From the NCBI GenBank assembly GCA_017654855.1, contig CM030332.1, positions 1,240,001 to 1,304,000 of the forward strand: a DNA stretch of 64,000 nucleotides, read 5' to 3'. This DNA comes from Podospora anserina. Taxonomy: Eukaryota. The notes below the pieces were generated by a model that saw nothing but the letters and a program-made list of their open reading frames with translations, did not search any database and was not told the origin of the DNA. Shown one piece after another: positions 59,153 to 64,000 of this stretch (its first letter is position 1; each line of letters starts with the position of its first letter). Position numbers and translations under genes: made by a program.

Positions 59153-60400
59153 ATGGCGCTCACATATCAACAATCAAAACTGGTCAAGGACACCATCCCG
59201 GCCCTCCGAGAGCACGGTGAGAAGATCACGACCATCTTCTACAAGAACATGCTTCGCGACCACCCGGAGTTGAACAACTACTTCAACAGCGTCAACCAGA
59301 AGAATGGCCGGCAACCGCGTGCCTTGACCTCTGTCATCCTCAGCTTCGCCTCCAACATCAACCACATCAGCGAGCTGATCCCCAAGTTTGAGCGCATGTG
59401 CAACAAGCACTGCTCTCTCGGTATCCAGCCTGAACACTACGAGATTGTCGGCAAATACCTGATCATGGCCTTCACCGAGGTGCTTGGCCCAGCAATGACA
59501 CCGCAGGTGCACTCGGCTTGGGAGAAGGCGTACTGGTTGTTGGCCAAGATGCTCATTGGGCGGGAGGCGCAGCTTTACAGAGACTTTGAGTCGTGGAGCT
59601 CATGGCGCAAGTTCAAGATTGACCGGGTGGTGCCAGAGACGGAGGATATCTACTCCTTCTATCTCGTGCCACAGGACGGCAAGAAGTTGCCCAAGTTCTT
59701 CCCAGGACAGTACATCTCTTTGCGGGTGAACGGCCCGGAGGGCTATCTCCAGTCAAGACAGTACTCGCTCAGTGAGGCGTGGAAGCCTGACTACTACCGC
59801 ATTACGGTCAAGAGGGATGAAGGCGCCAGGTATTCCAACTCGGTTTCACAATCGTACTTTCATCCTGGTGTTGTGTCCAACCTCTTGATCGACTCGATGC
59901 CCGCTGGCACCATGGTCGACGTTTCTCACCCCGCCGGCGAGTTCTTCCTCGACACCAACAACTCCAGCAACGTCCCCATCGTCCTCATCTCGGCCGGTGT
60001 CGGTGTTGCGCCCATGGTCGCCATTGCCAACGAAGTCGTTGCGACACAACCCAACAGGCCAATCTCGTGGATCCACGGCTCCAGGAAATCGGTACCGTTT
60101 GAGGAGCACATCACACACCTGAGACGCACCAACCCCAACTTCCACACCAACATCTTCAAGACACACCTTGCCGGGAGCGACGTGGTGGGGGTAAACTACA
60201 ACTACGACTTCCGCATGGACCTCGCCAAGGTCAACCCCGACGACCTCCACCTCAACCACGGCGGCACCGAGTACTTCATCTGCGGTCCCGAGCAGTTCAT
60301 GCTGGAGATGTCGGATTACCTCAAGAGCCAGGGCGTGCTGACCCAGCGCGTCCATTTTGAGCTCTTCTCGACCGGTGACCTTGCGTTCAAGCACCAATGA
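59153..60400 (+). CDS. fhbA: Flavohemoglobin (nitric oxide dioxygenase)
   Basis: Globin domain (FYKNML, QPRAL, NKHCSLGI.PEHYEIVG), FAD-binding RQYSL, and NAD-binding ISAGVGVAPM, ICGP and HFELF. Single exon. Confidence 0.95.
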   Translation: MALTYQQSKLVKDTIPALREHGEKITTIFYKNMLRDHPELNNYFNSVNQKNGRQPRALTSVILSFASNINHISELIPKFERMCNKHCSLGIQPEHYEIVGKYLIMAFTEVLGPAMTPQVHSAWEKAYWLLAKMLIGREAQLYRDFESWSSWRKFKIDRVVPETEDIYSFYLVPQDGKKLPKFFPGQYISLRVNGPEGYLQSRQYSLSEAWKPDYYRITVKRDEGARYSNSVSQSYFHPGVVSNLLIDSMPAGTMVDVSHPAGEFFLDTNNSSNVPIVLISAGVGVAPMVAIANEVVATQPNRPISWIHGSRKSVPFEEHITHLRRTNPNFHTNIFKTHLAGSDVVGVNYNYDFRMDLAKVNPDDLHLNHGGTEYFICGPEQFMLEMSDYLKSQGVLTQRVHFELFSTGDLAFKHQ

Positions 60401-62392
60401 GTGTGAGTTTTTCTCACGGAGATGACGGACGACGACGACGACGAAGCGGAGTTATCCCCCTTTGTGACATGCCGAGATGATGCTCGCTTTTCAGCATCCC
60501 GATCTTTTCTTTTTGCGGGCTGAGGAGAGTTCCTTGGTCAGTCTGCTTCAGGCAGGACCGGAGCAGAGAGCAACATTTCCGTGCATACATACATACACGT
60601 ACACACATATTTGTACTGACAAAGGAGGAAGAGAAATGGGGGAGAGAAGAGAAGAAAGAAAAAAAAGCACGTTTTCGATACCCAGGGCCATTACATAATC
60701 TATCTATGGAATTCTTTTTCTCGTCTTGGCTGGCGTTCCTGGAAACCGGTTTTTTTTTTGAGGGAGGCGGGGGGAAGGGGGTTTGTTTTCCGTACACATT
60801 GTTTGTCGAAAAAAATTGCGCGTGGTTGTCTTTCGTTTTTTGCTGTATAAAATCTCAGGGGTGGTTTGGGGGAGGGTGAGGGATAGGCATGGGCTGCATT
60901 AAAGAGATAAGGTGTAGCGGTTTTTTTTTATTACGGGGAATACTATCAAACATTTTTCCTTTTTGGAGGGTGACGGGGAAAGGTGGGCATGATGGTGTTT
61001 TGTCTTTTTTATTTTTATTTTTTTGGATTGTTTTCTGTTTATGTTTGTGTGTGTCGTTTTTGCAATGTTTTTAGAAGTTGGTCATTGTCATTGTCATCAT
61101 CATCATCATCATCATTATATCTAACTTTATTCTGCATTCATCTCAACACTTGGTGTTTGAGATAGGGGAGGGAGGGGGGTTGCTTTCGTTGTACATAGAG
61201 AATTTTTGGCCAGCACACGGCAGGCAAAAAGGGGGTGGTTGTTAGTTTGTATATATATACACCTGTCCCCTTTTGTATCTATCTGGGGCTTTTACCGTAC
61301 TCGCTGTTGTAATGCTTGATACTCACTCACACTCTGTACATGATGAGTATGGTGATATATGTCGGTTTATGTTATCTATTTCGTCTCATGTGGTGTTTTG
61401 TTTTCACCGCTGGGCTCCAAGTGTCTGGTTGCTGGGAGAGGAGGTTTATGCAGGGTGCATAATTAAGATTTTTCTTGCATAAACCCTTCTCGTTATGCTT
61501 CATCTCTGTATGACAGCCGCCGCACGGACCATATTTAGCCGGTTGTGCATATTTCCGAGGATAACTGTTCATCCAGCAGGAAGATGGATATTGACAACTC
61601 TTTTACTGAGTTGGTGTTGGACTACGATTTCTGGGGTCTTTTTTCTCTTTTCGGGCTAATTTGTTTCTGATCCATCAGGGCTCTTTAATCGAGATCACGG
61701 CGGAGGGTGAGGCTAGGGCTAAGGCCCATCAATTAGGTATCTTTGATGTATGGTCGTATTCCAAACAGCACTCTTCCATTTGTTGTCCATCTCCTTCCCG
61801 GCACGCAGTTGGGAGGCGGGACAGAAATAACCCCCCCAGCTTGGGTGTTGCACTGTACATATTTATCTTGATGTGTTTCCTATAAACAAACAACTAGAGC
61901 AGATAACACCTCGCAAAACAAAGACAATTCATAGCATCTCAATACCATGTGCCCTTACCAAAACAAAATTCTCCAGACATACATACACACACATTTGCCA
62001 CCCTATACCTACCCAAAGCCTGACCCTGATAACCGCACAAAAAAGAAATAGATATCCTGCCCCAACCACCCAGCAAATAAAACGCCAAAGACATAACACA
62101 ACCCTGAACCCCCAAGCTCCTTAAATAATGCTGATAAATGGGTCACTGATTTGCTCAAGACGCCTATCTCCTGGCAACTTTCCGTTGACGCGTAGAGCGA
62201 CGCTTGGTATCCTACACCGCTGACTGCTGCTCCCCTTGCTTCTCATCCGCATTACTGAGCTCCAACGCCTTCAGACTTGCATCGCACATTGCGACATCTC
62301 CGTCGACATCTTTGGGCAGACGGTTCTCTCGAGGTGGCTGTTGCTCCGGCTGTTGTTCCGGCTACTGCCCCAACTGCTGCTGCTGACCCTCT

Positions 62393-62415
62393 TGCTGCTG
62401 CTGCTGCTGCTGCTG
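62393..62415. repeat. (CAG)n microsatellite downstream of the GCN5 stop; encodes polyQ in the GCN5 frame
   Basis: Run of ctg triplets on the + strand, read as CAG on the - strand. Confidence 0.85.
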
Positions 62416-62535
62416 TGAAGATGCCGATGCCGACGCTGCCCGAGCCGCAACAGTACTGTTCCTCGAACTAACCCTTGTCGGTGGGCGACCCCTCCCACGC
62501 TTTGGCTTTTGCTGCTTCTGTGGCTTCGCGCCCAA

Positions 62536-63804
<1,269 letters not shown>

Positions 63805-64000
63805 GTTGCGCGCGGCGATTCCGGGATGAAAGCGAGTGAGGGCTGTATATGGGCGACGGCTCAAGCTGTCAAGCTTCTGGCGCCATTCATTTCGATGGCA
63901 AGCGCCGGGGATTGATGGAAGTTGTCGCGTTACCGATTGACGATGGCTCCGATGATGATGCGGAGAGAAGTGGATCTCGGTTCTCGAAGCTGCCACTTGC

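Follow-up and report, generated by a model that had tools for sequence, protein, structure and literature searches.

A candidate stop-loss extension with an AT-hook-like motif behind the GCN5 stop codon of Podospora anserina

GCN5 and the frame behind its stop codon

The gene for the histone acetyltransferase GCN5 in Podospora anserina ends in a UAG codon, behind which the same frame continues for 57 codons and encodes an AT-hook-like motif; comparison with related fungal loci indicates that this conserved stop-loss extension is probably real. The gene lies on the reverse strand of the window, by which we mean the whole 64,000-nucleotide (nt) stretch analyzed (contig CM030332.1 of assembly GCA_017654855.1, positions 1,240,001 to 1,304,000). 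Coordinates are window positions, and the features are listed in Table 1. The tail behind the first UAG looks selectively kept, and the explanation that we consider best, and moderately probable, is a conditional C-terminal tail with an AT-hook-like motif that would be made by A-to-I editing of the stop codon. We infer that editing is the means of bypass, and likewise its stage, the DNA binding of the tail and its biological role.

By its domain order (a GNAT domain followed by a C-terminal bromodomain) and its close orthology to named GCN5 proteins, the gene is GCN5/KAT2. Exon 2 matches the Pfam families Acetyltransf_1 (4.1e-10) and Bromodomain (1.8e-25, residues 247-329 of the exon), with 20 residues between the end of the bromodomain match and the stop. 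Identity to the best 120 fungal GCN5 proteins is 86-96%, the top matches being GCN5 of Chaetomiaceae at 96%, and the N-terminus of the protein is closest to that of Cladorrhinum in a protein comparison; on this evidence GCN5 places the window in the Sordariales.

Behind the GCN5 TAG, frame 0 reads LGAKPQKQQKPKRGRGRPPTRVSS...QQQQLGQ for 57 codons to a TAG at 62364-62362, then 49 codons to a TAG at 62214-62212, 15 codons to a TAG at 62166-62164, and 2 codons to a TGA at 62157-62155. This reproduces letter for letter a preliminary description of the stops, the segments and the position of KPKRGRGRPP, and the 58 residues which that description expected from bypass of the first UAG are accounted for by the 57 codons plus a Trp at the edited stop. 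The CAG repeat near the end of the extension is 67 nt long in the strain of the RNA runs described below and 64 nt in the window (+3 nt), in all three runs with a bridging contig.

Tails of related loci and the AT-hook-like motif

Searching metagenome contigs with the C-terminus of GCN5 gave a set of 80 loci with their 3′ flanks (given L numbers below). Of these, 49 had a readable ...PEW[ST]H[LM]... tail and, together with the window, were merged into 39 lineage groups on the basis of 11-mers shared around the stop. In the other 31 loci an intron directly follows PEWS; 26 of these were resolved separately and 5 were unresolved.

An AT-hook consists of a GRP core with R/K-rich flanks (PMC5519978), and KPKRGRGRPPTR in the window has this form. 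RGRP with basic flanks is found in frame 0, with no intervening stop, in 7 of the 39 lineage groups (the window, L001, L003/L010, L004, L005, L021 and L032). The expected number is 0.12, calculated for the first in-frame open stretch from a background of 19 RGRP per 289,278 codons in six frames. The relatives’ version reads K/R-R-R-G-R-P-(P/S)-(G/R)-R. Within the first 100 codons, frame +1 contains no hook and frame +2 contains one; among all nine motif-bearing groups the motif is in frame 0 in eight, and unbroken in seven of these. The codons of the core vary synonymously: the first R is AGG, CGA, CGG or CGT, G and P are each encoded by all four of their codons, and the second R by five. These switches between CGN and AGR and the codon turnover in the core argue for conservation of the amino acids rather than of the nucleotides. 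By affinity, L001-L005 and L010 are Chaetomiaceae-like and L021 is a more distant Sordariales-like locus; L032 is unplaced.

A second basic and Ser-containing motif, RVSSR, comes just after the hook in the window. The pattern R[RV]SS[RG] or RSSRR, which was defined after inspection of the data, occurs in the in-frame tail of 6 of the 39 groups against 0.15 expected; it follows the hook or stands alone, and the groups that have it include the Fusarium-like L028.

The in-frame tails of the relatives are 33-92 codons long and share a layout: the TAG, a variable linker of Ala, Gly and acidic residues, the hook, another 4-20 residues and a stop. That stop is TGA in 5 of the 7 relative sequences with an in-frame hook, and beyond it lies stop-rich nonsense. 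Three of the eight hook-bearing sequences have no in-frame ATG before the hook, which makes an independent downstream open reading frame (ORF) unlikely. In Sordariomycete-like TAG lineages the tails have many basic and few hydrophobic residues (K+R 0.18-0.33 and hydrophobic 0.07-0.18; examples are the window, L001-L005, L007, L012, L013, L021, L025, L032 and L078), and in the Sordariales-like L002, L007, L012, L013, L025 and L078 they are long and basic without RGRP. Hydrophobic tails (0.49-0.70) were seen in L017 and L077, both of which end in TGA, and in L029, which ends in TAG. Hydrophobic nonsense follows the stop in several TGA lineages and in Leotiomycete-like ones, and the intron-bearing HLAE-type loci read through into hydrophobic, stop-rich sequence, their tails looking non-coding.

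Differences at the three codon positions, counted in DNA alignments of four little-overlapping pairs, number 3/6/45 in the coding sequence (CDS), 44/49/69 in the tail (p = 0.039) and 85/93/92 in the untranslated region (UTR) behind the tail (p = 0.81). L003 and L010 differ at 18 of 159 nt in the tail and at 63 of 240 nt in the UTR. Protein-guided ratios of nonsynonymous to synonymous substitution (dN/dS) are 0.21-0.62 for the tails and 0.01-0.17 for the CDS. As judged from these alignments, constraint is weak on the linker and strong only at the motifs.

Some features of individual tails are recorded here in their own right. A divergent lineage with HLEPS-TAG (L053:1182-1988) remains open in frame for 268 codons after the stop, by far the longest tail, with poly-T(hr), acidic and basic runs and the end RRRRRRRGSS. 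The tails of the Fusarium-like L028 (...RIRIRLRRSSGH...) and the Lasiosphaeriaceae-like L012/L031 (...RSIRVRRSSGLE...) have in common an IR[IV]R.RSSG block and are otherwise unalignable; the RRxS in them resembles a basophilic kinase site. L002 and L012 both have ...SSVASCIV near the tail end. Directly behind the tail stop, in the 3′ UTR, all six Chaetomiaceae-like loci (L001, L003, L010, L004, L005 and L006) contain a conserved non-coding block of about 25 nt (...TGATTGCATT(T/G)TTTATTGGCGTTG...), of which a similarity comparison detected no counterpart in the window.

Annotated proteins do not include the extension. It is absent from the best 120 GCN5 proteins, all of which cover 73% of the query; a PEW match is present in 119 of them, which terminate 7-11 residues beyond it. 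With a profile made from the last 40 residues, the Trp and the tail of eight sequences, coverage of the query is no more than 38-42% among the best 120 matches in the 90%-identity clusters. None of 60 matches in a 50%-identity library is a GCN5 with a hard-wired hook; 17 of the 60 were inspected, and the long ones were mostly models read into an intron or unrelated proteins. Two proteins met in these comparisons are worth recording: P0172 (94 residues), a GCN5-like bromodomain fragment reading ...WSYLEP-W-ESYAPL..., has a Trp at the position of its relatives’ stop, reflecting either a genomic TGG or an edited transcript; and the bromodomain-only P0195 (290 residues) has a hard-wired basic tail (…ARRRSTGPSALAAR…) beyond PEWSHL.

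As the preliminary description supposed, a GCN5 stop-loss event or AT-hook tail is not described in the main texts of the literature consulted, the names ngf-1, NCU10847, FGSG_00280 and FGRRES_00280 included; supplementary site lists may name GCN5. Stop-loss editing and function-bearing tails were known already, and what is new is GCN5 as a stop-loss candidate with an AT-hook tail.

Stop codon context and transcript

The GCN5 stop is TAG in 31 of the 39 lineage groups, TGA in 5 and TAA in 3. TAG is retained despite varied last residues (HLE, HLEP, HLES, HLENS, HLESS, HLEPS, HLEPEK/R, HLEA, HLAD and HMEK). At the 26 resolved intron-bearing HLAE-type loci the stops are mixed: TAG 14, TGA 11, TAA 1. 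TAG-ending genes, 4,292 in number, make up roughly 30% of the genes of F. graminearum. That count of about 4,292 comes from PMC13684035, and 323 to 403 of these genes are reported to undergo stop-loss editing (PMC4817773, PMC13123824, PMC13684035).

At fungal editing sites U is reported to be favored at -1 (85.7%) and A or G at +1. Hairpin loops are also favored, containing 62.4% of sites and a larger share of the highly edited ones, and UAG is among the most edited triplets (PMC4817773). The context in the window, ...UCU-UAG-U, fits in its U at -1 and G at +1; the U at -2 is weakly preferred, and +2 is a U where G is preferred. The UAG is predicted to fall in the loop of a small hairpin (Table 1), with a minimum free energy (MFE) of -6.7 kcal/mol over +/-15 nt and a predicted probability of 0.98 that the A is unpaired. 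Across the 31 TAG lineages, the A is predicted to lie in a hairpin loop in 30. Under a strict rule (loop of 3-8 nt, stem of at least 3 bp), 22 of the 31 qualify, against 87 of 305 other UAGs of the same transcripts (Fisher p = 7e-6). Composition-matched shuffling of the flanks gave means of 20.1 and 11.3 for these two counts (30 and 22 observed), and 0 of 200 shuffles reached the observed values; the mean MFE z-score is -0.54. We regard the hairpin context of the GCN5 UAG as a consistent prediction and not as proof of a selected structure, because the lineages are related and share sequence near the stop, and because covariation was negative (see below).

Twenty-two public runs of one organism contain the stretch; none is recorded as RNA, and 16 that are guessed to be RNA contain 0.89 of the sampled words. 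We compared contigs of four guessed-RNA runs, from four studies. The joint between exons 1 and 2 is spliced in all four contig sets, which shows that these runs are RNA-derived. In each of the four runs, the GCN5 contigs span from 63921-63961 down to 61713-61832, giving a 3′ UTR of at least 704-823 nt (contigs cannot fix the true 3′ end, nor do they show strand or level) with the whole candidate extension inside the mRNA. An mRNA that ended before the AT-hook would, in the preliminary description, have spoken against its proposal; the contigs instead extend through the whole region. No joint is found within the 3′ region in any of the four sets, although minor isoforms could escape.

All four RNA runs share two strain differences in the GCN5 CDS, at 63001 (C>T) and 63241 (C>A) on the + strand, which fall in third positions of TCG Ser codons and are both synonymous. 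The convergent neighbor at 59153-60400 (+) is a single-exon flavohaemoglobin gene (Globin, FAD_binding_6 and NAD_binding_1); its RNA contigs run beyond the stop, through a masked repeat at 60996-61126, and end at about 61286. Those of GCN5 reach down to 61713-61832, and the roughly 430-550 nt in between are not covered.

Table 1. Features of the GCN5 locus and its 3′ region, in window coordinates
Feature	Position	Strand	Remarks
GCN5 exon 1	63670..63804	-	ATG 63804-63802; 45 codons, MAKDTKRK...PFPEK; joint to exon 2 in RNA contigs, 4/4 runs
GCN5 intron	63586..63669	-	84 nt, GT..AG on - strand; joint 63585/63670 skips 84 nt (CT..AC on + strand), 4/4 runs
GCN5 exon 2	62539..63585	-	349 codons; GNAT acetyltransferase domain and bromodomain, end ...IPEWSHLES; translation, Pfam
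GCN5 stop codon UAG	62536..62538	-	candidate stop-loss editing site at A 62537 (UAG to UIG, read as Trp)
Predicted small hairpin	62526..62546	-	UAG in 5-nt loop; 4-bp inner stem plus 3 outer pairs; MFE
Candidate in-frame extension	62365..62535	-	57 codons (58 residues with Trp); basic (K+R 0.18), hydrophobic 0.07; no in-frame ATG before hook
AT-hook-like motif KPKRGRGRPPTR	62473..62508	-	KPKRGRGRPP 62508-62479; RGRP core 62482-62493
RVSSR motif	62461..62475	-	second basic/Ser motif, just after hook
CAG-rich repeat	62383..62446	-	polyQ in frame 0; strain-variable length; masked as repeat in contig comparison
Second in-frame UAG	62362..62364	-	likely terminator of extension; predicted unpaired; contigs show genomic letter
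Ladder segments 2-4	62155..62361	-	49 + 15 + 2 codons (UAG, UAG, UGA); probably plain 3′ UTR
Rest of 3′ UTR within contig reach	61713..62154	-	contig starts 61713 (X8), 61786 (X16), 61791 (X15), 61832 (X1)

Weighing the explanations

On the reading that we favor, GCN5 translated from the unedited mRNA would end ...EWSHLES. Deamination of the A at 62537 to inosine, by the fungal sexual-stage machinery of the TAD2/TAD3 type with its preference for U-A-G in hairpin loops, would turn the stop into a codon read as Trp, and translation would continue for 57 codons to the UAG at 62364-62362. The added tail would be disordered and basic, presenting a K/R-R-G-R-P-P motif and then R-x-S-S-R about 35 residues behind the bromodomain. 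The hook may there contact the DNA minor groove beside the acetyl-lysine reader, as in BRG1/BRM, and this could alter the site or dwell time of GCN5 complexes on chromatin in sexual development. Our estimate takes as its prior the share of TAG-ending F. graminearum genes with stop-loss, about 9% (403/4,292), and raises it for context and conservation.

A number of observations weigh against this reading. In the 384 nt after the GCN5 stop, frame 0 is less open than frame +1 (5 stops, GCN5’s included, against 1; frame +2 has 3). Of the TAG-ending lineages, 28 have 300 nt or more of flank; frame 0 stays open longest in 12 of these (p = 0.19), and its open length does not differ significantly from that of frame +1 (Wilcoxon p = 0.31; medians 49.5, 38.5 and 24.5 codons for frames 0, +1 and +2). 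With 58.6% GC, against 44% in the 400 nt that follow, the composition of the region suffices to keep frames open, and we rejected open-frame length as evidence for coding, frame +1 being more open and frame 0 not significantly longer. Outside its motifs the tail evolves fast, as the dN/dS values given above indicate, and multiples of three do not clearly prevail among indel lengths (11 of 30 in tails, 15 of 56 in UTRs). Covariation of the inner hairpin yielded 0 double-change pairs, with 75% of cells paired against 73.8% after shuffling (12 gap-free sequences), and the hairpin evidence as a whole consists of per-sequence predictions on related, partly conserved sequences. TAG is also common outside the Sordariomycete-like lineages, in 7 of 8 groups of HMEK/HLAD/YKDEK type, for which the literature consulted contained no editing reports; mRNA editing has been reported for Sordaria, Neurospora and Fusarium (sources including PMC6794485 and PMC4817773). 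Finally, the contigs of all four runs carry the genomic A at 62537, 62363, 62213 and 62165; as minority variants are lost from contigs and the runs are of unspecified growth stage, this limits the editing claim without refuting it.

The hook itself also meets objections. The RGRP set was chosen by its motif, so that the unchanged core is partly a product of construction, and the lineages are not independent; the independent information lies in the excess over background, the frame and the codon turnover. In the window the hook comes 11 residues into the tail, near its start, whereas in the relatives it comes 23-80 residues in, near the end, and beyond the hook (hook region E = 0.05) the window tail has no DNA-level similarity to other tails. 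Pfam AT_hook gives no match on six tail peptides at E <= 10; five of the six match no family, and the L021 peptide has weak matches, with AT_hook absent among the 25 of 66 families listed. The AT_hook model of Pfam is very short, and single hooks rarely pass HMMER filters, so that the missing match counts weakly against the hook. Lastly, the hook of L006 is in frame +2, and that of L036/L037 is in frame 0 behind four stops; no intron of the form GT[AG]NG[TC]...YAG with at least 40 nt rescues the hook of L006 or L036. These exceptions could be real losses or assembly errors. L006:1221-1490 retains the hook-coding DNA (RRGRPPGRGGRRV) in frame +2 relative to the GCN5 TAG, through either a true frameshift, with loss of the tail, or an assembly error in its G-rich runs.

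Editing might also produce a tail whose sequence hardly matters: a generic disordered, destabilizing tag that lowers GCN5 dosage in the sexual stage, the hook having no DNA-binding role. Tails of this kind act as degrons in FgDBF2 and in six other GFP-fused cases (PMC13123824), the GCN5 linker is fast-evolving and predicted to be disorder-like, and several Sordariales-like lineages have long basic tails that lack RGRP. We nevertheless consider this explanation unlikely, as it leaves unexplained why R-G-R-P and R-x-S-S-R are kept across tails that are otherwise unalignable.

Alternatively, the region may be untranslated 3′ UTR, in which the GC-rich block and RGRP words persist as an RNA or DNA element or as the fading remnant of a longer C-terminus. 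An RNA element would keep nucleotides, though, and here it is the core residues that persist as their codons change; eight of nine motif-bearing groups have the motif in frame 0, seven of them unbroken, and the tails terminate soon after it. What speaks for this view is that frame 0 is no more open than frame +1, that the frame is lost in L006 and stops are gained in L036/37, that genuine non-coding conservation exists nearby (the block behind the tail stop in the six Chaetomiaceae-like loci), that differences in the tail are weakly concentrated at third positions (p = 0.039), and that no GCN5 examined is annotated with the extended protein. On balance an untranslated region strikes us as a little less likely still than a degron.

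Ribosomal readthrough of the UAG, without editing, would supply a low, constant fraction of hook-bearing GCN5 in all cell types. Everything in the comparisons that speaks for a translated tail is just as compatible with this, as are the lack of A-to-G changes in the contigs of the four RNA runs and the frequency of TAG outside the Sordariomycete-like set. The base after the UAG varies (U, G or A), however, as do the next codons, and the known readthrough contexts, UGA-CUAG and UAG-CARYYA, are not matched. Preference for TAG over the leakier TGA, together with a hairpin loop, is moreover the published signature of fungal editing (PMC4817773; PMC13123824), and readthrough therefore appears distinctly improbable to us. 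That the hook is joined by alternative splicing that removes the stop, or belongs to a separate small downstream ORF, would suit the long 3′ UTR (at least 704-823 nt) and the four stops that would need removing before the hook in L036/37, but is very improbable given that no 3′-region joint occurs in any of the four contig sets (minor isoforms could escape), the frame is open from the stop itself in seven groups, which splicing does not require, neither L006 nor L036 has a candidate intron that would restore the frame, and three of eight hook sequences lack an in-frame ATG before the hook.

A candidate tail that ends at the second UAG is what remains of the preliminary description: the in-frame AT-hook-like tail behind the first UAG is supported by the conserved TAG, the predicted hairpin loop, the in-frame hook with codon turnover in seven groups, and its presence in the mRNA, and the ladder of isoforms reaching +127 residues is not. 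That the three further frame-0 stops are all UAG is mildly unusual, and all four UAGs of the window are predicted to be unpaired (the A of the final UGA is predicted to be paired). The segments behind the second UAG, however, have only chance-level similarity to the tails or UTRs of relatives; those relatives end 4-20 residues past the hook, and the window segments match nothing, in a set that included no close relative of the window species. Longer isoforms through further UAG edits are thus doubtful. The same doubt applies to the idea that a sexual-stage isoform redirects histone acetylation to AT-rich DNA, with further UAG edits grading the tail from +58 to +127. AT-rich DNA in the Sordariales is largely the product of repeat-induced point mutation, which is active at the same time in development.

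Sexual-stage editing removes the stops of hundreds of fungal genes, and the value of the added tails is disputed: they have been interpreted as adaptive degrons (PMC13123824) and as mostly error (PMC13684035). According to the rebuttal in this dispute, what discriminates is whether the sequence 3′ of the edited stop is conserved, and such evidence is difficult to come by. GCN5 provides a test case, with a recognizable in-frame motif behind a conserved TAG in tails that are otherwise unalignable; if the extension is real, it would be one under selection for its sequence and not merely its presence, which bears on the question of adaptive editing. F. graminearum needs GCN5 to form perithecia and ascospores (PMC12884345), so a stage-specific isoform with its own DNA contact would, if it exists, link editing to chromatin regulation.

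The GCN5 site shares the UAG, U at -1, G at +1 and predicted hairpin loop with the stop-loss edited genes FgDBF2, FgMOB1 and FgCDC14 of F. graminearum and wc-1 of Sordaria macrospora. The comparative evidence presented for FgDBF2 was over-use of TAG, a hairpin-embedded TAG and a disordered tail (PMC13123824), and GCN5 has all three, the hairpin and the disorder by prediction; the wc-1 tail of +131 residues, with a recognizable module, is a precedent for a tail that bears a motif (PMC6794485). Unlike the DBF2-type cases, the GCN5 tail keeps a specific short motif of DNA-binding type, and GCN5 is known here from its sequence and from unedited contigs. In programmed readthrough extensions, such as those that give fungal glycolytic enzymes a cryptic peroxisomal targeting signal, the stop is a UGA followed by a defined context. 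They have a short functional motif, conserved and in frame behind the stop, as GCN5 may; GCN5 differs in its UAG and variable next base.

PUK1, with two tandem edited UAGs, resembles the GCN5 ladder in having several UAGs in one frame (PMC4817773), but a conserved kinase domain lies behind its stops, whereas the GCN5 sequence behind the second UAG matches nothing. The hook of BRG1/hBRM is N-terminal to the bromodomain and always present, whereas that of GCN5, which is a feature read from sequence, would be C-terminal (about 35 residues away) and conditional on bypass. The two have in common a GRP core with R/K flanks within tens of residues of a bromodomain, and in BRG1/hBRM the hook acts together with that neighboring bromodomain in multivalent DNA binding (PMC5519978).

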